From: an uncultured bacterium
Lineage (GTDB): Bacteria; Hydrothermota; Tepidihabitantia; SM23-42; CAYGYG01
Length of the DNA stretch: 64,000 nt
Direction: 5' to 3'
NCBI GenBank assembly: GCA_964354155.1
Contig: CAYGYG010000013.1
Coordinates: forward strand, 3,696 to 67,695
Below are positions 13,008 through 25,046 of this stretch, piece by piece. The position numbers and the translations under genes are program-made. The notes below the pieces were generated by a model. That model searched no databases. It was not told the origin of the DNA and saw only the letters and a list, made by a program, of their open reading frames with translations. Position 1 is the stretch's first letter. Every line of letters begins with the position of its first letter.

Positions 13008-14171
13008 GTGGGTTACGGTCGCATCTGGGCCGAGATTGATCTCGGTAAACTTGTTGACAACTACCGGAAGGTAAAGAGCCTCTGTCCCAAATCGCGGGTG
13101 CTGGCGCCGATCAAGGCCGATGCCTACGGCCACGGGGCCATCGAAGTAGCCCGCACCCTGGAGCGGGTCGGCATTTTCATGTTTGGCGTCGCCGGCGTCG
13201 CAGAGGGGATCGAGCTTCGCAAAGCCGGCATCCGAACGCCGATTCTCGTGCTCAGCCCGATACCGTTCGAAGAGATCGATGCGATTTTCGAGTACCGCCT
13301 CCGGCCGACCATTTCGGATCCGGCATTCTTCGACATGCTCGAAGAGAAGCTGCGGTTCCGACGTAACCGGAAGCTCGCCGTCCATGTTGAAGTCGATACC
13401 GGCATGACCCGCACCGGTGTTTCCTACGATCAAGCTTTTACCATGATTCCCTGGATCGCCGGCAAGCGCAATCTTGAACTGGAGGGCGTCTTCACGCATT
13501 TCCCGGTCGCCGACACCAGCGTGCCTTTTTCCGAGAAACAGGTCCAAGCGCTGGCGCGGCTCAAGAAACATCTGGCCGGTCAGGGGATAAGGCCCAAGCT
13601 CTTCCATATTGCCAATACCGCAGGTCTTGTCAACCGGCTGGGTGGGCCCTTCAGTCTGGCACGCCCCGGTGTCGCCCTGTACGGTTTGATGCCGGCAAAC
13701 CAGATGCGCGACCGGCTTGGCCTCGACCCGGTCATGGTGCTCAAGACCATGGTCGTCAATGTGCGTGATGTACCCAGGAATGCGGCAATAAGCTATGGCC
13801 ACACATTCCGGACCAAGAAGCGTTCAAAAATCGCCACCCTTTCCGTCGGCTACGGCGACGGTTATCCGCGTTGCCTGTCGAACATCGGCGAAGTCATCAT
13901 CCGCGGCCGCCGCGCCCGGATCGTCGGAACGGTCTGTATGGATCTGATGATGGTCGATGTGAGCGGCATTGCGGATGTTGGCGTGAACGATACCGCCATC
14001 CTGATCGGCCGCGAAGGCCGGGCCGAGATAACGGCTGCCGAATTGGCCCTTAAAGCCAAGACCGTGATCTACGAGATCATCTGCGGTATCGGTCCCCGGG
14101 TGCCGAGGGTCTATTATCAACACGGCCGGTTTCTCCGGGTGCGCAATCTTTTCCTTAGAGGGATGATGTGA
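13008..14171 (+). CDS. alr: Alanine racemase
   Basis: IKADAYGHGA PLP lysine, VDTGMTRTG, THF, R.G..LYG, GYGDG, G.VCMD. Confidence 0.96.
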   Translation: MGYGRIWAEIDLGKLVDNYRKVKSLCPKSRVLAPIKADAYGHGAIEVARTLERVGIFMFGVAGVAEGIELRKAGIRTPILVLSPIPFEEIDAIFEYRLRPTISDPAFFDMLEEKLRFRRNRKLAVHVEVDTGMTRTGVSYDQAFTMIPWIAGKRNLELEGVFTHFPVADTSVPFSEKQVQALARLKKHLAGQGIRPKLFHIANTAGLVNRLGGPFSLARPGVALYGLMPANQMRDRLGLDPVMVLKTMVVNVRDVPRNAAISYGHTFRTKKRSKIATLSVGYGDGYPRCLSNIGEVIIRGRRARIVGTVCMDLMMVDVSGIADVGVNDTAILIGREGRAEITAAELALKAKTVIYEIICGIGPRVPRVYYQHGRFLRVRNLFLRGMM

Positions 14172-14228: not shown

Positions 14229-14519
14229 ATGACTGAGAACGAGAAGCAACACGAGCCGCATGCCGACGAACCGATGAACTTCACGTCGCTGGTATTCATG
14301 CTGGCGGCAGGCGCGATGCAGAATATGGGGGTTATTGCCAACCCCGTCACCCAGAAAGTCGAGAAGAACTTGAAGATGGCGCGTCAAACCATTGATCTTC
14401 TGGATATACTGCGCGCCAAGACCCAGGGCAACCTCGACCAGGCGGAAAGCCGGCTCTTGGCCGAGCTGCTCGCTGATTTGAAACTCAAAATCGTGAGACT
14501 CGAGCAAGAAAAGCCTTGA
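14229..14519 (+). CDS. DUF1844 domain protein
   Basis: F..LV..LA..A...MG...NP...K....L..AR.TID.L..L..KT.GNL...E..LL..LL..L. Confidence 0.85.
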   Translation: MTENEKQHEPHADEPMNFTSLVFMLAAGAMQNMGVIANPVTQKVEKNLKMARQTIDLLDILRAKTQGNLDQAESRLLAELLADLKLKIVRLEQEKP

Positions 14520-14622: not shown

Positions 14623-14650
14623 TTGACAATGCGATACTTATGAATATAAT
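14623..14650 (+). promoter_or_regulatory. sigma70-type promoter TTGACA-N16-TATAAT for the LysM-TPR operon
   Basis: Perfect hexamers about 240 nt upstream of ATG 14891. Confidence 0.75.
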
Positions 14651-14890
14651 AATTTTTGGGTTATACGTTTGTATCTCCCTAAGGCCTAAGGCCCCGTAGG
14701 GGGACACAGTGGTGTCGTAGAGAGAAGTGCCTGACCAACAAGGCGGACGGCTGCCGGTTGGGTTCGTTAACGTCTGTTTATTTAGGAGGATAAGCTTACT
14801 CTCACCGGTTGGTGAGCAGGTTGCTCTTGTGGTTGATCAGAGGTAAGTTACTTGGCCCGTGAAGCAACGATAGATCTTTAAGGAGGAAAG

Positions 14891-15928
14891 ATGAAAAAGG
14901 TTTTGATCTGTGTCTGTTTTCTCGTCTGCCTTTTTGCGGAAGACGTGACATACATGGTAAAACAGGGCGACACCCTGTGGGACATCGCCGGATTCTACTA
15001 CCAGAATCCCTACCTTTGGCCGGTCATCTGGAACGCGAACCTTGAGAAAGTCAGTGATCCCCACTGGATCTATCCCGAGCAGGTTCTGATCATACCGCCG
15101 TCACCGGAGTCGACCCTGGCCGGGGACTCGGTACCGATTGTTGCGCCGGAGACGCTCGTTATCGTTGAGGAGGACACGACTACCTACACGTACTATGCGC
15201 CGAAACCCCACGGACAAGAGATCGAAGTATCTTTTGTCGCGGCCGATAGGAAGGTCTTTTCCGAGGAGCTCATCCATCGCTGTGGCTATCTTGCGGAAGA
15301 AGAGATCATTGCCGCGGCGAAGATCATTCGCAGTGAGCCGGAGCGGGAGCGCATTACCAACTTTATGAAGGTCTATGTCGACCGCACGACGCCGGAAACC
15401 AATGTGGGCGACGTTTACAGCATCTACCGGATGGGTGACGTGGTCGACGACCCGGCCACCGGGCAGTACCTCGGCAAGGTCGTCGACATTCTCGGCAAAT
15501 TGAAGATTGAAGAGGCGGCCGAAGGCGGCACCCGCGCCCAGGTTACCGTTTCCCACGATATCATCAAGCCGGGCGAGCTGCTCGTGCCCTACCCGAAGTT
15601 CGAGATCCCGACCAACGTCACGCTGAAGGTGACCAGCCGCTTGCTCGAGGGGCAGGTTGCCTACGTCCGGAGCAAGACGACCTTGACGCAGAATTATACG
15701 ATCGTTTTCCTCAATGTCGGGGCCAACAGTGACGTGACGATCGGCGACGTATTCCGCATCTATGAAGAGAAGACGTACGGCGGCCGCAAACTGCCCGACC
15801 TTTCCGTCGGCGAGGTGCTGGTGGTCAACGCACGGCCCAGCTCATGCGTCGGCCTTGTCTCCTGGCGCCGCTTGACGCACAAGATCGTGCGCGGTGACAA
15901 GGTGCGGTTGTACCAAGAGGCGCATTGA
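14891..15928 (+). CDS. Exported LysM peptidoglycan-binding protein, TsaP-like architecture
   Basis: Signal peptide, VKQGDTLWDIA..Y.NPYLWP.IW..N....DPHWIYP LysM, beta-rich C-terminal domains. Confidence 0.85.
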   Translation: MKKVLICVCFLVCLFAEDVTYMVKQGDTLWDIAGFYYQNPYLWPVIWNANLEKVSDPHWIYPEQVLIIPPSPESTLAGDSVPIVAPETLVIVEEDTTTYTYYAPKPHGQEIEVSFVAADRKVFSEELIHRCGYLAEEEIIAAAKIIRSEPERERITNFMKVYVDRTTPETNVGDVYSIYRMGDVVDDPATGQYLGKVVDILGKLKIEEAAEGGTRAQVTVSHDIIKPGELLVPYPKFEIPTNVTLKVTSRLLEGQVAYVRSKTTLTQNYTIVFLNVGANSDVTIGDVFRIYEEKTYGGRKLPDLSVGEVLVVNARPSSCVGLVSWRRLTHKIVRGDKVRLYQEAH

Positions 15929-16392
15929 TGCAAGAGCAGGCACTGCTCAAAGGCATCTACCTGTTTCGCGAACTCACGCCCAAGGAGACCGATCTGGTCA
16001 TTTCGATCTCCAGGGAGCAGACGTACAAAAAGAATGCTGTCATCTTCAAAGAAGGTGAAAAGGGCGATGCCTTTTACGTCGTGGTCTCGGGCTCGGTCCG
16101 GATCTCGACGATTGTGCCGGGGGTAGGTGAGGAGGCACTGACCGTGCTGCGGAGCGGCGAATACTTCGGTGAGATGGCGCTGATCGACGACGCGTCCCGC
16201 TCGGCCAGTGCGATCGCCAACGAAGACACGCTTCTGATATCGATTGCGAAAAAGGACTTCGAGAATCTGCTGGCGAAGAACACCGACCTTGCCTACAAGC
16301 TGCTCTGGGTATTCACGAGAACCTTGTGTAGCCGGTTGCGCAAGACGGATGAACAGCTCAAGTCGATATTCGCCATCGCGAAGAACTTCTGA
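15928..16392 (+). CDS. Stand-alone cyclic-nucleotide-binding domain protein
   Basis: IFKEGEKGD.FY.V.SG.V, GEYFGEMAL....RSASA.A. Confidence 0.92.
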   Translation: MQEQALLKGIYLFRELTPKETDLVISISREQTYKKNAVIFKEGEKGDAFYVVVSGSVRISTIVPGVGEEALTVLRSGEYFGEMALIDDASRSASAIANEDTLLISIAKKDFENLLAKNTDLAYKLLWVFTRTLCSRLRKTDEQLKSIFAIAKNF

Positions 16393-16398
16393 TCGCGC

Positions 16399-16728
16399 AT
16401 GGCCGATACGTTCTTTTTGCTCGTCTTCCTGAGCGTCCTCGTCGAGCGCGTCAGCGAAAAACTGCTATACCTTCTGCCGGGGAAGAGGCGGGTGTGGGCC
16501 TGGGTTGTTTCGACAATCCTTGCGCTCCTGATCACCTTTCTCTTCCGGGTCGGCCTGCTGGGCATGATGGGGTTTGCCGCCTCGTCCGGAACCGCCAGCC
16601 GACTCGACTACGTAATCACGGCGCTTTTAATTGCCTCGGGCAGCGAACCGATTCATGTTCTGTTTCGGACGCTCGAGTACAAGAAAGAAGAGATAAGAGG
16701 AAAGGCGAAAGCCGCGAAGGATGCTTGA
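16399..16728 (+). CDS. Small membrane protein with about 3 transmembrane helices, holin-like pattern
   Basis: Hydrophobic segments. VITALLIASGSEPIH resembles the TG..ISRGSN..HD motif of putative holins (weak). Confidence 0.6.
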   Translation: MADTFFLLVFLSVLVERVSEKLLYLLPGKRRVWAWVVSTILALLITFLFRVGLLGMMGFAASSGTASRLDYVITALLIASGSEPIHVLFRTLEYKKEEIRGKAKAAKDA

Positions 16729-19700
16729 GTTTTTCTCCAGCCATGACCGAGAAAAGATCCTCGAGAAGGCTCGGAAACTGAAGGCGGACGGACGGGTCGA
16801 GCAGGCGATCAAGACGCTGGAAAGCTCGGTCTCGTCCTCGCCGGAGGATTTCGACCTGTATCTCGAACTGGGACGCTACTGCTTTGAGGGCGGACGGAGG
16901 ATTGATGCGGTCGCGGCCCTGCGTAAAGCCCTTGCTCTGGACAGCCAACGCGCCGATGAAGTGGTCGGCACGCTCACCGATCTTCACTACCGGGGTTCAT
17001 CGCCCATTGAGACCGGGGATGCCCTGCTCGAGATGTACATCGTCCGCCGCGATTTTGAAGAGGTCGAGCGGACGCTGAAATCGCTGTCCACCAAGGATCT
17101 GCAGTTCCTCGAGACCCGGTATCTCAAGATTTTCGAAAACACCTACAAGAACAAGAATCCGGCCGAATACACCGCCCGGGAAACCAACATCCTCCTCCAG
17201 CTGGCGAGCGTCGAGATTTTCATCGGACGCATGGAACGCGGCTTTGAGCTGGCCGAGAAGTTCTTGGGCGTCAAGGAGAGCGAGCGGCCCGCGGTCCAGA
17301 ACTGGGCCAAAAGCGTGTGCCGGTGGAAGTGGGGCAAGGCGCTGTCCCAGTTCTACTTGATGCGCCTGCTGCTGGCCGCCCAAAAATACGAGGAAGCGCT
17401 TCAGGTTGCCCAGCGCGCGGTCGAATTCGACAAGACCTACAGCCTGCGGATTCACGAGGAGTTTGCGAAAGTCGCGTTGCCGCCCAAAATCCAGGTCGAG
17501 TTTCTTTCGTTTCTCTCTTCACTTGAGGTCGGCGCCAAGGACATCGACGGTGCGATTGCCAACTTGAACCGCCTGCTCAATCTTGATACCGGGCGCACCG
17601 ACGACGTCATCCGCGGCTTCCGCGATCTGTTGCGGATGGCCCCAAAGGAGTCGAAGGTCATTTTTGCCTTGGGCGATGCCTACCTTCACGCCAAGCGGAG
17701 CGGCCTTGCGGTCGAGGAGTATGCCAAAGTACTGGAGATCGATCCCGAGAAGACCGATGAGGTCCTAAGTCGATATCAGGCCGTGCTCAAGGTCGATTCC
17801 AAAAACCCGCAGGTGATCGCCGCCTTAGTCGAGGGCTATCTGGCCAAGAACGACATCGCCAAGGCGACCGAAGTCATTGATCAGTCCTACCAGGCCGACC
17901 CGGGACTGATCGAGGAGTACCTGCCGAATCTCAATACGATTCTCGATCGCGACATGAACAACATGAAGGCGCTCAACCTGCTGGGGCTCGTCTATCTCAA
18001 GAAGGGCGAGATCGATAATGCGATCCTGATTTTCGAGAACCTCTTGAGCCGGGGCAGCGAGGGGCAGGTCCTGGCCGAGGCCGGCAGCCGGGCCGTACTG
18101 CTGGCGATGTCGGATAGTATCCCGGCCCTGAAAGTGTTGACCGACGCGCTGCTGCTGCAGGGCCGCGGGCCGGAAGCCCTCAAGCTCATCGGCGGGCGGG
18201 TCAAGGCCGACCCGGCGACCGCCCTGGAGCTCGTCGCCAAGCTCGACGCGATCCTCAAGGCCGACCCGGCCTTGATCGAGTCGGGCCGCGGCATCTACGA
18301 GGAATTCAAGATCCAGGATGAGTTTCTGGTCGGCCTGGTCGTGGGACGCAGTTTTGCCTACCAGAAAAACTACGCCCGGGCGCAGGAATCGTTCCAGAAG
18401 TGCCTGGCCCTCGACCCGGCGCGCCACGATCTGGTGAAGAAAGTGCTGATGGAGCTGGTTCAGGACGACTCGAAGGCGGTTCCGCTCATGGTTTACATCG
18501 CCCGCATCTTCCTTAAGGAAGGCGACATCGAGAAGAGCGCCCGGTTCTTCCGGGCCGCGCAGATGGTCGACCCTTCGATCTTCGCTGAAATCATCGATGA
18601 TTTCTACGACATCGTCAAGGCGCACCCTGAGGACGTCATGATGCGGCGGCTGTTGGTCGAAAGCCTTCTCAACAAGGGACTTTTCGACCGCACGATCGAG
18701 GAATGCCGGATAACGACCGAAGCGGTAAGTCCGGCGGACGGCGCGTATTTCCACTTAAAACAGGCCCAGGCGATGCTGGCGAAGGGTCGGCTGACCGACG
18801 CGGTGCGTCCCTTCATGCTCGCCCAGGAGCATAACGTCAACTTCACCAACGAGGTCATCGGCGGCCTGGAAAAGATTCTATCGATCGACAAGAACAACAT
18901 TGCGGCCCACTTCGCGCTCGGCCGGGCCTACGGGGCGGCGCGCATGGTCAATAAGGCGGTCGAGGAACTGCTCCTGACCGCCCGCATCGTGCCGACCCGG
19001 GTCAGTTACGTCATGGACGAACTCAAGAGGCTTGAGACGCTGGCCCCGGCCAACGCGATGGTCCATTTCGCCCAGGGGTTGCTCCACGTCAGCCAGAAAA
19101 ACTTGAAGGAAGGCATCGGCGAGCTCGATCAGGCCCGGGAGATGGACAAGAGCCTGCTCGACAAGATCATCCCGGTCTACGAGAAGCTCGAGACCGAGGG
19201 GACGTCGCCCGAGCTCCTCCTGAGCCAGGCGCGCGCTTACTCGGACAAGGGTTCGTACAACTTCGCGGTCGACTTCTTCCGGAAGGCGTTCGAGAGCGAC
19301 CCCGGGCGGCTCGAGCAGATTGTTTCGGGGCTCAAGACGATCTGTACCGTCCAGCCGGACAACGCCGAAGCACGCCGGCTCCTGGCGCGGATCTACTTTG
19401 ACTACAACGCGCTGGACGATGCCGTCTCGGTGGCCCGCGAAATCTATGGTTCGAGTGCCACCCACCGCATCTGGGCGATCGACTTTGCGCGCGAAGTGCT
19501 GACCAAGAATCCCCAACACATCCCGACCTACTATTTTCTAGCCGAGCTATGCTTCGACGAGGGTAAATTCAAAGAGGGAATCGAAACGCTGGAGCGGCTC
19601 CGGGGATTCGCCCCGCACGAAGTGCCGGCGATGATCGACCGGGCGGAAGCGGTCTACCAGAACAACCAGTATGTGCCGGAGATCGTGATTTTCCTGGCCG

Positions 19701-20497
19701 ACCGCTATACCGACGTCTCGCTCGAGCAGAAGTCAGTGGCGTTCTTGAGGAAACTCTATAATACCAACGCGGCATTTGCCGATGCGGTACTCCACCGGCT
19801 CCGCTATATTCTCAAGAAGAAGCCGGACATAATCGACGGCTACTTCCTGACCGCCGACATTCTGAGCGCCCAGAACGATTTCCAGCGGGCCCGCGAAGCG
19901 CTCGAGTTCGGCGAGCGTTACGCTACCGGGATTCAGGACAAGGTCGAACTGCGGCTCCGGCTTGCGAATTTGCTCAACCTGCTGGGCGACCGCGCCGGAG
20001 TGAGCAGCACGCTGATGAAAGCGCTGCGCATCGCGCAGAACAAAGGCTCGGTTTACCAAACCATCAGACAATTGCATGAGAAGAGCCTGACCAACCGCCT
20101 CGAGGTGCTGCGCCGCGAGACGAACGAAGACAGCCGTCTCGAGATGGTGCGTATCCACCTGGCGTTGGGTCAGCTCGATGAGGCGGAACAGTTTCTCGTT
20201 TTCGTACCCTCGGGCAACGAAGTGCGCCGCGCCCAGGCGCTGCTGAGGGCACGGGTCTACCTGGCGCGGAATCGCGCCCTCGACGCCCTTGAAGTCTTGA
20301 GGCCGCACAAGGACGATGAGCGGATCGCCCTGGCGTTAGCTGATGCCCACGAAAGCATGGGTAACTACGCGGCGGCGGTTGCGACACTCAAGGCGCTGGG
20401 CCGGCCTGAATTTCTCGGCCGCATCAAGGTGGATGAGACGAAATTGATTGAATCTTTGCTATCGGGCAAGAAACGGGTCTTAGAAGGGAGGCGCTAA
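16721..20497 (+). CDS. Very large tetratricopeptide-repeat protein (1258 aa)
   Basis: Many TPR-like helical repeats (ALGDAYL, LGLVYLKKG, AHFALGRAY). No signal peptide. Confidence 0.85.
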   Translation: MLEFFSSHDREKILEKARKLKADGRVEQAIKTLESSVSSSPEDFDLYLELGRYCFEGGRRIDAVAALRKALALDSQRADEVVGTLTDLHYRGSSPIETGDALLEMYIVRRDFEEVERTLKSLSTKDLQFLETRYLKIFENTYKNKNPAEYTARETNILLQLASVEIFIGRMERGFELAEKFLGVKESERPAVQNWAKSVCRWKWGKALSQFYLMRLLLAAQKYEEALQVAQRAVEFDKTYSLRIHEEFAKVALPPKIQVEFLSFLSSLEVGAKDIDGAIANLNRLLNLDTGRTDDVIRGFRDLLRMAPKESKVIFALGDAYLHAKRSGLAVEEYAKVLEIDPEKTDEVLSRYQAVLKVDSKNPQVIAALVEGYLAKNDIAKATEVIDQSYQADPGLIEEYLPNLNTILDRDMNNMKALNLLGLVYLKKGEIDNAILIFENLLSRGSEGQVLAEAGSRAVLLAMSDSIPALKVLTDALLLQGRGPEALKLIGGRVKADPATALELVAKLDAILKADPALIESGRGIYEEFKIQDEFLVGLVVGRSFAYQKNYARAQESFQKCLALDPARHDLVKKVLMELVQDDSKAVPLMVYIARIFLKEGDIEKSARFFRAAQMVDPSIFAEIIDDFYDIVKAHPEDVMMRRLLVESLLNKGLFDRTIEECRITTEAVSPADGAYFHLKQAQAMLAKGRLTDAVRPFMLAQEHNVNFTNEVIGGLEKILSIDKNNIAAHFALGRAYGAARMVNKAVEELLLTARIVPTRVSYVMDELKRLETLAPANAMVHFAQGLLHVSQKNLKEGIGELDQAREMDKSLLDKIIPVYEKLETEGTSPELLLSQARAYSDKGSYNFAVDFFRKAFESDPGRLEQIVSGLKTICTVQPDNAEARRLLARIYFDYNALDDAVSVAREIYGSSATHRIWAIDFAREVLTKNPQHIPTYYFLAELCFDEGKFKEGIETLERLRGFAPHEVPAMIDRAEAVYQNNQYVPEIVIFLADRYTDVSLEQKSVAFLRKLYNTNAAFADAVLHRLRYILKKKPDIIDGYFLTADILSAQNDFQRAREALEFGERYATGIQDKVELRLRLANLLNLLGDRAGVSSTLMKALRIAQNKGSVYQTIRQLHEKSLTNRLEVLRRETNEDSRLEMVRIHLALGQLDEAEQFLVFVPSGNEVRRAQALLRARVYLARNRALDALEVLRPHKDDERIALALADAHESMGNYAAAVATLKALGRPEFLGRIKVDETKLIESLLSGKKRVLEGRR

Positions 20498-22851
20498 TGA
20501 AATGCCCCTTTGTGTCCAGGGTCGTAAGGAAGATTACTTCGAGAGTGGATGCCCAGGGAAAAGTAATCGGGGATGATGTCGTCGAAACCAACGAAACGGC
20601 GGAATGCCTGCGCGACGAGTGCATGGTCTATGATAAGTCCAACGCGAGTTGCTCGCTCTTTGTCTCTAACTTGAGGGCCGGCCAGCTTCTGGCCGAACTG
20701 AAGAAGAGCAGCACGGAAATGGGGAAGGCGCTGTTTGAGCGCACCGAGACCCTGGGCGTCATCTACTCGACCAATTTTCAGACGCTGCAGGATGCGGTGT
20801 TGTCCAAGCTCGACCTGATTCGTAAGAGCAACGAGATCATGGCGATGGGGTTGGATCGCACGAGCGGTAGTCTCGCCGAAATCATCGAAAGTATCGGCAA
20901 ATTGAACATACCGTTGTCGGCCAACGCGGAGAGCGGCAAGACGCTGGAGAAACTGATCGGCGTAATGGATAACGGGCTCAGGAACGGCCTGGCGTCGCTC
21001 AGTACCGATTTGAAAGGCGTCCTGATCACGGTGCATAACGAGAGCAAGCAGAGCCTGGCCCAGCTGGGTGAAGCCTTGAAGAAGGATTTGACCCCGATGG
21101 TCGAAGACCTGAAGAGCGTCCGCGCCGCCAGCGAAATTTTTGTCCAGTTTACGAACAACGCCCTGGGCGGGATCGGCGATATCTCCAAGAGTGTCGACCT
21201 GCTTGACGTCCACGTGAACAACGCCTTCAAGGAACTTGGTACGAGAGTGGAGAGCGACATCAAGTTCCAGGGCGAAGTCGCCGGACAGGAAACGCAGAAG
21301 GCGCTCAAGGTGAGCGAGCATTTGGTGGAGCTTTCCTCGAGCACGGTCAATTCCTTGAGCGAGGTTCTGAACAAGATTGGGACGGTTGGTGAGCAGCTGT
21401 CGGGTCGGCTCGGGAATCTCGACGAGCACACCGCCGCCGTGCTCAAGGAGACGGCGAGCGGCCTCGGCGATTATTTGAGGCATGAACTCCAGCCGGTGGC
21501 GCATGAGCTGGTTGCCGGCCGGGCGGCGAGCGAGGCGGCACTTCAGTCTTTAAATATGGTGATCAACAGCCTGACCGATGTGTTCAAGGGCGTCACGACC
21601 CTCGACGAGACGGCGACCAAGGGGCTGGGCACGGTCGCGGTCGGTCTTGAGGCGGTTGCCGGGCAGGTCGGGAATCTCGGGGGCAAGCTTGACGGCATGG
21701 AGAAAAATATGGTTGTGGTCGGAGCCCAGCAGCAAGCTGCCTTCGATGGTTTCGCCCAGAGTGTCAAAGATATGGCCGCGGCGCTGGACAAGTCCTACCA
21801 GTCGATTGTCCAGTACGCCGGCCAGCAGACCGAAATGTCGTCCAGCGTCGTCATCCATTTCAAGGCGCTTGAAGACAGCCTGCGGGCCATGTCCGAAGAG
21901 GGCGATACGCCGCTGCGCGACATCGCCCACGAGCTTGAGAAACTGCAGACCATGCTCCACGACCGGCTCGAAATCTACAAAGTAGGGCTGGAAGGGCTGT
22001 TGGCGCTGGAGAAGAAGGGTTTTGACCGCAATGCCGAGGCGATCGATGCGCTCAGAGCCGAGTACGGCCAGACCGTGGTTGCGCTCACTGATGCGGCGCG
22101 TTCGATTCATGAGACCGAAACCGAGCTTAAGAGTTTCACCGGCAAGACGGCGGATGCGCTTAATGACAACATCACCCGGGTGACCAGCGAGCTGTCGATC
22201 TTCCAGACCGAGCTGGCGCGCTACATCAAGGAAAACATCGGCCGTTTCACCGAAATCGTTGAACAGCAGAAATCCATTGCCGAAGGCAGCCGGACGGCTT
22301 TCGAAAGCATGAACACGGTCTTCAAGAAGCAGGAAGAGCAACTGAAAGCCCAGGAAAGAACCAGCGTGCTCCAGCAGGCGCAGGTCCGGAACGACCGGGC
22401 GACGGTGATGTTCCACCGCGGCAACTACGACGCTGCACTGCTCGAGATTGACGAAGCGCTGAAGATTGAAGAATCGGCCGAGTATCACAACAACCGCGGC
22501 CTCATCCTGAGTGAGATGGGCCGGCCCGATGACTCCCGTAAGGCGTTCCAGAAGGCGATCGAGATGGCTCCGTCAATGAGCGAGCCTTACAATAACCTTG
22601 GTCTTTTATATCTTAAGATCAAAGACTACGACAGCGCGGTGGCCACGTTCGGCGAGGCGACAAAACGCAACATCAATTACGCCGCGGCCTTCACCAATCT
22701 GGGCCATGCCTTCGCCGCCAACGAGAGCTTCGACGAGGCAATCAAGGCCTGGGAAAAGGCGCTGACGATTGATCCGACCAATCATGACGCCCGTGAGGCT
22801 TTGAAGCTGTACAAGGAAGGCAGGGTCGATGGATATACTGCAGAGACTTAA
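20497..22851 (+). CDS. Cys-rich N-terminal head, long amphipathic coiled-coil/helical region, C-terminal TPRs
   Basis: MKCPF...CLRDEC.....C head, heptad-rich middle, HNNRGL/YNNLGL/FTNLGH TPRs. Confidence 0.8.
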   Translation: MKCPFVSRVVRKITSRVDAQGKVIGDDVVETNETAECLRDECMVYDKSNASCSLFVSNLRAGQLLAELKKSSTEMGKALFERTETLGVIYSTNFQTLQDAVLSKLDLIRKSNEIMAMGLDRTSGSLAEIIESIGKLNIPLSANAESGKTLEKLIGVMDNGLRNGLASLSTDLKGVLITVHNESKQSLAQLGEALKKDLTPMVEDLKSVRAASEIFVQFTNNALGGIGDISKSVDLLDVHVNNAFKELGTRVESDIKFQGEVAGQETQKALKVSEHLVELSSSTVNSLSEVLNKIGTVGEQLSGRLGNLDEHTAAVLKETASGLGDYLRHELQPVAHELVAGRAASEAALQSLNMVINSLTDVFKGVTTLDETATKGLGTVAVGLEAVAGQVGNLGGKLDGMEKNMVVVGAQQQAAFDGFAQSVKDMAAALDKSYQSIVQYAGQQTEMSSSVVIHFKALEDSLRAMSEEGDTPLRDIAHELEKLQTMLHDRLEIYKVGLEGLLALEKKGFDRNAEAIDALRAEYGQTVVALTDAARSIHETETELKSFTGKTADALNDNITRVTSELSIFQTELARYIKENIGRFTEIVEQQKSIAEGSRTAFESMNTVFKKQEEQLKAQERTSVLQQAQVRNDRATVMFHRGNYDAALLEIDEALKIEESAEYHNNRGLILSEMGRPDDSRKAFQKAIEMAPSMSEPYNNLGLLYLKIKDYDSAVATFGEATKRNINYAAAFTNLGHAFAANESFDEAIKAWEKALTIDPTNHDAREALKLYKEGRVDGYTAET

Positions 22852-23200
22852 GTCGCAGAAGAAAGACAAAGACAAGGGCAGCGTCCTGTCGTCGATCTTC
22901 GAAAAGACGGAAAAAGAAGAAGCGAAGAAAGACAACGCGGTTGACCCGGACATCACGCACATTGACAAGCCCAAACCGGAAGAGAAGGTTGTCTTCCGCG
23001 AAGAGCGCATCATCAGCCGGCCGCAGACTTTTCATTCGGATGGTCTGCGCGAGTTCGACCTCGAGAGCCTGAAGGCCGATGAAGGTGCAACTCTGAAAGC
23101 GGCCTGTGCCCAGAAAGTCAACGTGCTCATTATCGACGGGAAGTTCGAAGAGGCAATCGGCGAAATCACGGCGCTCGAAGCAAAGCTGGCCTCGAAGTAG
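22829..23200 (+). CDS. Hypothetical charged protein
   Basis: Overlaps the upstream stop (translational coupling). Lys/Glu-rich with a helical C-terminus. Confidence 0.65.
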   Translation: MDILQRLKSQKKDKDKGSVLSSIFEKTEKEEAKKDNAVDPDITHIDKPKPEEKVVFREERIISRPQTFHSDGLREFDLESLKADEGATLKAACAQKVNVLIIDGKFEEAIGEITALEAKLASK

Positions 23201-23408
23201 CTGTCGAGCAATTTGGCAATCAGGCAACTAAGCTATCAGGCAATTGTGCGATCGAGTTAATAAGCTATTAAGCTATGGAGCTATTGATCCTTAACTCATT
23301 GCTGCTCTTTTCGCTACTCGCTACTCTCTACTTCGGGCTCTCTACTCCCTGCATTCTCCCCGCTACCTGGCATAACCCATAACCCATAAGCCATTGCGCT
23401 AAATCGGT
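23201..23408. repeat. Short-period degenerate repeat tract (GGCAAT, AAGCTAT, CTACTC, CATAACC)
   Basis: Related tracts at 30960-30985, 35515-35545, 37808-37847 and 43255-43310. Confidence 0.6.
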
Positions 23409-25046
23409 ATGGCTTCCCTCGACACCAAATTCCTTTTCGTCACCGGCGGCGGCGCCGCGTCGCTGGGCAAGGGCTTGATCAGCGCTTCGATCGGGCTGTT
23501 GCTCAAGTCGCGCGGCCTGCGCGTCGCGATCCAGCGGGTTGATCCCTATCTCAATGTCGACAAACGCACCGTGGACCCGGCGCTGCACGGCGAGATTTAC
23601 CTGACCGAAGACGGGGGCGAGGTCAGTTTTCACGTCGGCGATTACGAACGTTTTCTCAATGAGCCGCAGAGTTCGGAGCATTCGATCACGGTCGGTCAAA
23701 TCTACCACTCGGTCCTGCTCAAGGAGCGGCGCGGCGGGTACGGCGGCCACCTGGTCCGCATACGGCCGGACGTGGTCGACGAGATCAAGGCGCGCCTGAC
23801 GCGGCCGGCGCTGGCCAAGAAACCGGACGTGCTCATCACCGAGATCGGCGGCAGCATCAATGACATCGACACCCTGCCGTTTCTCGAGGCCTCCCGGCAG
23901 TTGTCGATTGAGCTTGAGGCCGATGACGTGCTGTTCATTCACATCGTCCTGGTGCCTTATGTCCGGGTGTCGAAGCGGTACGAGACCAGCGGTGCCTGTC
24001 AGAGCATCCGTGATTTGCGGTCGTGGGGGATTGAACCGAAAGTGGTCATTGCCCGCTCGGAATCGCCGTTGCCCAGCGCGTCACGGCAGGAGATTTCGCT
24101 GGTCAGCAGCGTGCCGATCGACGCCATTTTCGAGGCGGTGGATGTCGAGAGCATCTACGAGATCCCGCAGAACTTGCATCGGCAGGGACTGGACCGCACC
24201 ATCGCCAAGGTCGTCAACCTCAAGACCAAGGAGCCGGACTTCACCGAATGGAACCTGTTTCTCCAGCGTATGAAGACGCCCTTCCGCGTCTGCGAGGTTG
24301 CGGTCTGCGGCTCGACGACGATGCACCGCAACTCCCACCGCAGTCTGGTTGAGGCCTTGAATCACGCCGCGGTTGCCAACAACATCAGGTTAAGACTGTA
24401 CTGGCTGGATACGAGCACCGTGACCAATCCCGAGCAGATCGCGACGATGTTGCAGAGTGTGGCCGGCGTTATCCTGGTCGGGACCGCGGTCGGGCCGAGT
24501 ATGGACGGGGAGATCAACGTGAGTGAATACGCGCGGACCCAGGGTAAGCCGTTTGTCGGCATCGATTTGGGATGCCATGCGGCCCTGATTGAATTCGCGC
24601 GCAACGTCGGCGGCTTGAGGCACGCCGATACCCAGGAACTCAATGAGAACAGCCGAGTTCCGCTCATCCAGGCGGTGAGCAATCCCCGGCGGCCGGCCGA
24701 GGCACTGAGTGGGGGTGCGATGCGGCTCGGCTCCTGTGCGGTGAGTCTCGTCGACAATACCCTGGCCAGTCAGATTTACCGCAAGCGCGAGGTCACGGAA
24801 CGTTTCCGGCATTGTTTCGCCCTCAATCCGAAATATGTCAAAAGGTTGGCCAAGGCAGGGATGGTGGCGAGCGGGATCTCGTCGCGGCGACGGTGCCACG
24901 ATTTCTTCGAGCTCAAAGCGCACCCGTTTTTCGTCGGCGTCCAATATCACCCGGAATATCGTTCAACGCCCCTCGCACCGCATCCGATCTTCTACCAATT
25001 CCTTAAAAAGGTGATCAAGCTCGCCGAAACGGTTAGCGGCAAGTAG
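23409..25046 (+). CDS. CTP synthase (PyrG)-like protein with degenerate active sites
   Basis: Colinear with PyrG (FVTGG..SLGKG, DPYLNVD, YERF, EIGG, MRLG, QYHPE). GICLG is replaced by GIDLG, PGGFG by VGTAV and KTKPTQ by ETSGAC. Confidence 0.85.
   Translation: MASLDTKFLFVTGGGAASLGKGLISASIGLLLKSRGLRVAIQRVDPYLNVDKRTVDPALHGEIYLTEDGGEVSFHVGDYERFLNEPQSSEHSITVGQIYHSVLLKERRGGYGGHLVRIRPDVVDEIKARLTRPALAKKPDVLITEIGGSINDIDTLPFLEASRQLSIELEADDVLFIHIVLVPYVRVSKRYETSGACQSIRDLRSWGIEPKVVIARSESPLPSASRQEISLVSSVPIDAIFEAVDVESIYEIPQNLHRQGLDRTIAKVVNLKTKEPDFTEWNLFLQRMKTPFRVCEVAVCGSTTMHRNSHRSLVEALNHAAVANNIRLRLYWLDTSTVTNPEQIATMLQSVAGVILVGTAVGPSMDGEINVSEYARTQGKPFVGIDLGCHAALIEFARNVGGLRHADTQELNENSRVPLIQAVSNPRRPAEALSGGAMRLGSCAVSLVDNTLASQIYRKREVTERFRHCFALNPKYVKRLAKAGMVASGISSRRRCHDFFELKAHPFFVGVQYHPEYRSTPLAPHPIFYQFLKKVIKLAETVSGK

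Follow-up and report, generated by a model that had tools for sequence, protein, structure and literature searches.

We examined a 64,000-nt stretch of DNA, hereafter the window (contig CAYGYG010000013.1, positions 3,696 to 67,695), from an uncultured bacterium of candidate division WOR-3 (genome of 2.96 Mb, 99% complete). Relatives that share the gene cluster carry WOR-3 or Candidatus Stahlbacteria as their deposited name. Our subject is a run of six co-directional genes, g1 to g6, in which the gene for a predicted member of the TsaP family of pilus-associated envelope proteins is joined to one for a cyclic-nucleotide-binding (CNB) protein and to three, g4-g5-g6 (the trio), for predicted cytoplasmic scaffold proteins. 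The best-supported reading of this arrangement is that the TsaP-family protein and the trio act in one process. The genes, their upstream neighbors and the promoter are listed here (TPR, tetratricopeptide repeat; TM, transmembrane):

14891-15928, + strand: g1, 345 aa; predicted exported TsaP-family protein with signal peptide, LysM domain, linker and tandem C-domains
15928-16392, + strand: g2, 154 aa from ATG (TTG at 15925 is an alternative start); stand-alone cyclic-nucleotide-binding protein
16399-16728, + strand: g3, 109 aa; small membrane protein with 2-3 TM segments, facultative
16721-20497, + strand: g4, 1258 aa; predicted cytoplasmic protein made up entirely of TPR/helical repeats
20497-22851, + strand: g5, 784 aa; 4-Cys head, long helices and four C-terminal TPRs
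22829-23200, + strand: g6, 123 aa; charged protein
13008-14171, + strand: alr, alanine racemase (Pfam Ala_racemase_N/C; TIGR00492, 335.9 bits), the conserved upstream neighbor
14229-14519, + strand: DUF1844 small protein, 96 aa (PF08899, E 1.8e-23), often found between alr and tsaP in WOR-3
14623-14650, + strand: sigma-70-type promoter TTGACA-16-TATAAT, 12/12 consensus matches, with a leader of ~235 nt to g1

An initial annotation of this DNA had described six overlapping or abutting genes, and all six open reading frames (ORFs) are indeed present at 14891-23200 on the + strand, with every junction overlapping or within +6 nt. The g1 and g2 genes overlap by 1 nt (TGATG), g3 and g4 by 8 nt, g4 and g5 by 1 nt (TAATG), and g5 and g6 by 23 nt; g2 and g3 are separated by 6 nt. 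Shine-Dalgarno-like motifs precede g1, g2, g4, g5 and g6. These overlaps are kept across relatives, at -1 or -4 for g1/g2, always -8 for g3/g4, and -1 or -4 for g4/g5.

TsaP, as described in the literature, joins a LysM domain through a disordered linker to two FlgT-C-like domains, and these build a heptameric belt on PilQ (10.1101/2020.05.29.123786). The hydrophobic N-terminus of g1, MKKVLICVCFLVCLFA, has the character expected of an exported protein and precedes a LysM domain at residues 21-69 (PF01476, E 4.9e-9). In phmmer searches against the PDB, g1 aligned with Myxococcus xanthus TsaP (3jc8_Ta) over residues 20-292 with an E-value of 1.1e-24. It also aligned with Pseudomonas aeruginosa TsaP (6ve2_O) over residues 20-67 and 174-309, covering the LysM and the CI/CII region, with an E-value of 8.4e-16. 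At the sequence level, these alignments also place the tandem FlgT-C-like CI/CII domains in g1. With the Pfam FlgT_C model, a g1 homolog at locus L109 reaches the threshold (27.3 versus 27), whereas g1 itself falls below it. Compared with the TsaP proteins of Neisseria gonorrhoeae, M. xanthus (PDB 3jc8/3jc9) and P. aeruginosa (PDB 6ve2), g1 is of similar size (345 versus 341 aa) and shares the signal peptide, LysM domain, low-complexity linker and two C-terminal domains, in the same order. As in other bacteria, tsaP in the window lies apart from pilMNOPQ. Homology thus extends beyond LysM, and we regard g1 as a genuine TsaP homolog and a new member of the family on these alignments. What sets the WOR-3 protein apart is its company: its gene is coupled to one for a cyclic nucleoside monophosphate (cNMP) receptor and, in the window's order, to three scaffold genes as well. 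It also co-varies phyletically with the g4 TPR protein, and no such partners have been described for the characterized TsaP proteins.

The second gene encodes a CNB domain (PF00027, E 1.3e-25; 89.6 bits, cut-off 27.5) whose phosphate-binding cassette, FGEMAL...RSA, is intact, with F80, G81, E82, R91, S92 and A93 invariant in 10 orthologs. Most residues of the C-terminal tail, RLRKTDEQLKSIFAIAKNF, are also invariant in the ortholog alignment, and with 67-88% identity across the order g2 is the best-conserved gene of the cluster. Its 154 aa comprise the CNB domain only, with no helix-turn-helix and no output domain. It was rejected as a CRP/FNR transcription factor: NF008732 gives 52.8 against a cut-off of 266, and the match ends at model position 138 of 214. 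As a CNB domain g2 is ordinary; what is unusual is that it stands alone and is so highly conserved.

Stand-alone CNB proteins of ~150-165 aa that are 40-50% identical to g2 are widespread in metagenome-assembled genomes (MAGs) of Nitrospirota, Myxococcota, Acidobacteriota and Gemmatimonadota (L078-L151). In many of these alignments, identity spans most or all of g2 and reaches the C-terminal tail. Of 80 loci kept with g2-like genes, the ~70 from these four phyla have no TsaP, TPR or pil gene as a recurring neighbor. Sequence search found no close homolog of these g2-like proteins among solved structures.

Seven of 14 relatives have the third gene, and in each of them it overlaps g4 by 8 nt. 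Its product has 2-3 TM segments by hydropathy profile and conserved ERVTEK and GSEPIH motifs, and it matches no family in Pfam or NCBIfam. The initial annotation called it holin-like and cast it as a small membrane anchor. The holin label fails, as the best PHROG holin match has an E-value of 0.41, no Pfam family matches, the gene is missing in about half of the relatives, and its conserved context is chromosomal rather than phage-related. Being neither holin-like nor indispensable, g3 is therefore not an obligatory anchor.

The fourth gene encodes the larger of the two putative scaffolds. Many TPR families match g4, which consists of TPR or helical repeats over its full length and lacks a signal peptide. 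Its N-terminus is conserved (MLEFF..ILEKA), as is its length (1241-1265 aa across the order and in f7, another family of the same class). It scores far under every curated TPR-protein model, including that of the pilus activator SgmX, for which it was rejected (NF052243, 18.9 bits against a cut-off of 1800).

The head of g5 contains four cysteines, C3, C37, C42 and C52, that are invariant in both of our alignments (A1, A2). It is followed by ~560 aa of long helices, which vary in length between relatives (total g5 length 484-879 aa) and show no internal repeats by self-BLAST, and by a TPR domain at residues 627-770 (Pfam). The AlphaFold2 (AF2) model of g5 has a beta-hairpin, then helices of 56-88 residues with low predicted local distance difference test (pLDDT) scores, then TPRs at residues 620-776 with pLDDT >90. 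Mean pLDDT is 48 for the full-length protein and 54 for the head; the usable parts of the models are the TPR domain and the general picture of a hairpin followed by long helices. The C-terminus was rejected as a PilW/PilF/Tgl pilotin (66.1 versus 154 for PilW, 46 versus 225 for Tgl), and g5 has no signal peptide or lipobox.

The last protein, g6, has a basic N-terminal helix (MDI..LK..KK), an acidic linker, and a conserved C-terminal REF..G..EF motif and EAI..L.EL helix. No family was found for it in Pfam, NCBIfam or PHROG comparisons. Within the order it keeps its place after g5, and in other classes g6-like genes likewise come after g5-like ones (L066-L071).

The g5 head is rare, with only 20 clusters among 1.84 billion representative proteins, and all checkable sources or encoding genomes are WOR-3. 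Homolog searches with g5 and g4 returned 3-9 close relatives, with the word filter saturated by TPR and low-complexity words. Both the Cys head and the trio turned up in WOR-3 genomes only; neither g4 nor g6 was sought in other phyla. Membership of the FimV/HubP family was rejected as well: no FimV/HubP model is among the NCBIfam and Pfam matches of the six proteins, and the features of that family are spread over separate genes. Judging from the families compared, g4, g5 and g6 appear to belong to no characterized family. The ensemble falls outside the SgmX, FimV/HubP and pilotin families, whose defining models and features were compared with it and are lacking.

Apart from g3, the initial description of the parts agrees with what we found. 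The LysM protein it called TsaP-like is, by our alignments, homologous to TsaP across both the LysM and the C-domains, and its predicted cNMP sensor has a CNB domain with an intact binding cassette. Its two large cytoplasmic helical scaffolds, one of 1258 aa made of TPRs and one of Cys-head/coiled-coil/TPR design, fit the TPR matches and the model of g5. The small charged protein at the end of the operon is g6.

The -35 and -10 boxes of the promoter upstream of g1 are also kept in the sister genus (G001). Comparison with the same genome identifies ~170 nt of the g1 leader as inserted sequence peculiar to the window genome. The insertion (window 14690-14860) contains GC-rich hairpins, for example GGCCTAAGGCCCCGTAGGGGGACACAGTGGTGTC. 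The leader was rejected as a riboswitch: there is no Rfam match at E-values up to 1, the fold has a z-score of -0.81 against shuffles, and most of the leader is the genome-private insertion. Downstream, a CTP-synthase-like gene (pseudo-CTP synthase, 23409-25046) begins 208 nt after g6. Its adjacency to g6 is not kept in relatives, and we therefore place it outside the unit. The spacer at 23201-23408 is built of short direct repeats (CAGGCAA, AAGCTAT and CTACTC series), and no terminator-like hairpin was detected in it.

Gene order, which the initial annotation expected to be conserved if the genes form a system, is maintained. The order alr-g1-g2-(g3)-g4-g5-g6 occurs in 12 of the 13 order-level relatives with a fetched locus, and alr-g1-g2-g4 is found in family f7 as far as contig ends allow. 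In the 13th relative (G018), a closed genome, g4 itself is interrupted and the cluster lies in two places far apart: a 599-aa ORF for the N-terminal part remains by alr-tsaP-cNMP (L041:6188-7987), and a C-terminal 561-aa ORF lies with g5-g6 ~1 Mb off (L042:8665-10350). Either the chromosome was rearranged with a breakpoint in g4, or the assembly is wrong here.

Outside the order, the cluster comes apart into two pieces. In every order-level relative, and also in many other classes of WOR-3, alr is found directly ahead of g1, with DUF1844 between them at several loci (L033, L048, L049, L052-L054, L057, L076-L077). In these other classes, panB and further unrelated genes come after the alr-(DUF1844)-tsaP core. 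The gene immediately downstream of tsaP is g2 in some lineages (L048, L056, L076, L077, L109), and at L109 a PilB-type ATPase gene (T2SSE + MshEN) lies two genes downstream of the tsaP-cNMP pair. The trio, for its part, is a three-gene operon of its own at a separate locus in G060, G224, G249, G063, G046 and G233, and some of these separate trios have a g5-like protein without the Cys head. We conclude that the operon arose by fusion, in this lineage, of two older modules, alr-DUF1844-tsaP(-cNMP) and g4-g5-g6. The initial view of a translationally coupled unit agrees with the conserved overlapping junctions, but as a single unit of six genes the cluster is particular to this lineage.

The two modules could have been brought together by chance, a housekeeping alr-tsaP operon being joined in one lineage to an unrelated scaffold operon for convenient co-expression. 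Such an explanation fits the separation of the modules in other classes, the coming and going of g3, the metabolically unrelated alr upstream, and the g2-related stand-alone cNMP proteins of other phyla that have no TsaP or TPR neighbor. However, the fusion is kept with overlapping stop-start junctions in at least four families, and the distribution of the genes across the phylum is difficult to reconcile with accident.

All 41 genomes that were first searched carry both g1 and g5. We then have counts for 272 WOR-3 genomes, with TsaP scored by its TsaP-like C-domains: secretin is found in 226, TsaP-like C-domains in 111 and g4 in 104. Both TsaP-like C-domains and g4 are present in 101 genomes (101 of the 114 that carry either), TsaP-like C-domains only in 10 (families f24 and f25), g4 only in 3 (MAGs 66-87% complete), and neither in 158. 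Without correction for shared ancestry, the association per genome has a Fisher p of 2e-58. By family, 14 have both, 2 have TsaP only, none has g4 only and 27 have neither (Fisher p = 1.5e-9, uncorrected for phylogeny). The co-occurrence holds also where the genes sit at separate loci.

Within the window's class, TsaP, g4 and full-length g5 are found only in the window's order and f7. Families f4-f6, f8 and f9 lack secretin, TsaP and g4, so that TsaP, g4 and full-length g5 have been lost together in these sister families. Families f10-f14 have secretin and are missing both TsaP and g4. TsaP and the scaffold come and go together in the phylum, and for that reason they probably work together. 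The tight co-distribution of g1 and g4 when unlinked (101 genomes with both versus 13 with one) makes a pure co-expression accident unlikely, and we consider chance joining of the two operons quite improbable.

Families f5, f8 and f9 keep a head-only version of g5 of 124-192 aa. These head-only genes lie by alr-DUF1844 (G148), by a g2 homolog (G144) or alone on a short contig (G149), and in G148 and G149 they are followed by genes for related predicted lipoproteins. At two loci (L063:9427-10679 and L064:936-2129), the pair consists of a head-only g5 of 156-192 aa and a lipoprotein of ~200-225 aa with a PWKVGQWV motif. In G148 the pair comes directly after alr-DUF1844, the usual place of tsaP.

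If the TsaP-family protein and the trio do act in one process, that process might not involve pili. Under the main rival explanation, they form a peptidoglycan-linked envelope or cytoskeleton system for shape, division or the pole. The LysM protein would mark a site on the wall and the TPR and long-helix proteins would organize the cytoplasmic face, the landmark logic of FimV/HubP being split over several genes. The constant position of tsaP after alr, usually with DUF1844, is a cell-wall and not a pil context. More than 100 secretin-positive genomes lack both proteins, and secretin-less lineages keep head-only proteins beside alr-DUF1844 and a lipoprotein. In FimV/HubP proteins themselves, LysM is combined with a TM segment, an extended acidic region and TPRs at the C-terminus (PMC12918733). 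On the other hand, g1 is homologous specifically to the secretin-binding C-domains of TsaP, beyond LysM. Furthermore, secretin is present in 109 of the 111 TsaP-like-positive genomes, the two exceptions being 75-77% complete. No FimV C-terminal or HubP model is matched, and the cluster contains no division or shape genes. Overall, a pilus-independent system strikes us as somewhat unlikely.

The window genome encodes the machinery that a pilus-related function would need. PilM, N, O, P and Q are present, with PilQ (Secretin, AMIN, Secretin_N and STN domains) inside a canonical pilMNOPQ operon at G000:C14:16200-20431. It is the only secretin of the genome and supplies the partner expected for a TsaP protein. 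PilB- and PilT-type ATPases and pilin-like genes are also encoded. 

Another secretin machine, such as a type II secretion-like system or a competence pilus, could instead be the one served, in which case DNA uptake or secretion would be controlled. Several relatives do have 2-3 secretin genes. Natural transformation in Acinetobacter needs TsaP (PMC8811193), and competence pili are built with the same PilQ and TsaP parts. The window genome, however, has its single secretin in a pilMNOPQ operon, and this explanation seems to us very doubtful.

Outside the window, at G000:C9:35811-36901, a gene for an MglA-like GTPase (193 aa) adjoins one for a Roadblock/LC7 MglB-like protein (166 aa). By sequence resemblance, we take the pair to be a Myxococcus-type polarity switch. 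The ~3-Mb genome is also unusually rich in class III nucleotidyl cyclase domains, with 16 in all, of which 11 lie within ORFs of ~1080-1240 aa. Type IVa pili (T4aP), a polarity GTPase module and abundant cNMP signaling are thus all available to the organism. With a complete T4aP set and an MglA/MglB pair, the loose analogy to myxobacterial TPR scaffolds that had been drawn for this locus appears reasonable.

A further cluster outside the window (G000:C8:55074-61332) is of chemosensory type, with CheY-like, CheA-like and CheC/X-like proteins. The genes after it encode an 801-aa TPR protein, then one of 355 aa with TPRs that overlaps a Roadblock match, and a 100-aa Roadblock protein. This cluster may be a second TPR/Roadblock signaling module.

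Taken together, we tentatively favor a cNMP-responsive cytoplasmic scaffold that works with the TsaP/T4aP envelope complex. One module, alr-(DUF1844)-tsaP with or without the cNMP receptor, would supply g1, an exported protein expected to bind peptidoglycan through LysM and, by homology, to ring PilQ. The other, g4-g5-g6, would supply a cytoplasmic scaffold in which the g5 head probably binds metal and g6 may be a small adaptor. In the window's order, both modules, along with g2 and sometimes g3, would be made from one translationally coupled transcript. Through contacts among its members, the trio could form a platform beneath the pilus or envelope complex, and its assembly or its recruitment of partners would be gated by cyclic AMP (cAMP) or cyclic GMP (cGMP) through g2. 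The logic would be analogous to control of type IV pili by SgmX/MglA, by FimX and cyclic di-GMP (c-di-GMP), or by FimV/FimL and cAMP. The output would be pilus-related; roles in polarity, motility or division, as the initial annotation suggested, may also be envisaged. Two further observations support the link to pili. Sister families without a secretin are also without TsaP and g4 and have at most a truncated head-only protein, and the tsaP-cNMP pair recurs outside the order, once two genes from a PilB-type ATPase.

Several points weigh against this proposal. No pil gene lies beside the trio in any locus examined. With g1 periplasmic, g2 and g4-g6 cytoplasmic, and the sole membrane protein, g3, dispensable, no link across the envelope is identified. 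Both g4 and g5 fail every curated pilus-TPR model (SgmX, PilW, Tgl), and the AF2 models of g5 and its head are of low confidence. The TsaP-g4 statistics may reflect only ~3-5 independent events. The more than 100 secretin-bearing genomes that have neither a TsaP-like gene nor g4 imply that the pair is accessory at most. Finally, the head-only proteins of secretin-less lineages suggest a role of the head that is independent of pili.

Comparison with known scaffolds indicates what kind of system this might be. SgmX, a large cytoplasmic TPR protein of 1,060 aa, is a pilus activator that acts with MglA (PMC7519303). Like SgmX/Bd2492 (PMC7519303, PMC7668184, PMC9811614), g4 is a large TPR protein without a signal peptide, predicted to be cytoplasmic, in a genome with MglA/MglB and T4aP. 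This likeness makes a scaffold-and-recruitment logic plausible. However, the two show no orthology, and g4 is TPR-like throughout and always accompanied by g5 and g6. The regulatory input of SgmX is a GTPase, whereas the WOR-3 cluster encodes a cNMP receptor instead.

FimV/HubP and the FimV-FimL-CyaB cAMP circuit share the ingredients of the WOR-3 cluster: LysM on the periplasmic side, a segment in the membrane, an extended cytoplasmic part that is charged or helical, TPRs at the C-terminus, and a tie to cyclic-nucleotide signaling (PMC12918733). The last of these is also shared with CbpA, a polar cAMP-binding protein of P. aeruginosa (cited in PMC11139211). In WOR-3, by contrast, the parts are on separate polypeptides, the membrane part is optional, and the C-domains of g1 are of TsaP type and not FimV type. 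The c-di-GMP control of PilB by FimX/PilZ and MshE (PMC7519303) likewise ties a second-messenger receptor to pilus function. There, too, the messenger would differ, as a classical CNB domain implies cAMP or cGMP and the cluster encodes no GGDEF, EAL, PilZ or MshEN receptor.

TsaP is a conserved yet poorly understood part of type IV pilus machines. P. aeruginosa twitches without needing TsaP, its over-expression leads to second-messenger signaling, and a role in surface sensing has been proposed (10.1101/2020.05.29.123786). One extension of our proposal, which we think unlikely, is that TsaP is the periplasmic end of a dedicated trans-envelope axis and more than a passive anchor in the wall. 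The WOR-3 scaffold and cNMP receptor, co-evolving with it, would then read out or determine the state of the pilus pore and pass this information to the cytoplasm, with the 4-Cys head, which pilus-less relatives retain, as a new metal- or redox-sensing module. If true, this would supply native partners for the surface-sensing role proposed in P. aeruginosa.

For WOR-3, our analysis predicts a defined set of cytoplasmic partners, g2, g4, g5 and g6, that is inherited along with TsaP and, within a single order, translated together with it as well. Were the link physical, it would represent a new class of pilus-associated scaffold and a cAMP or cGMP input to pilus control, in a phylum without a cultured model. 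A link unrelated to pili would instead suggest that TsaP-family proteins have a second role, associated with the wall. In both cases, three unannotated protein families, the g4 TPR protein, the g5 Cys-head protein and g6, gain a context.

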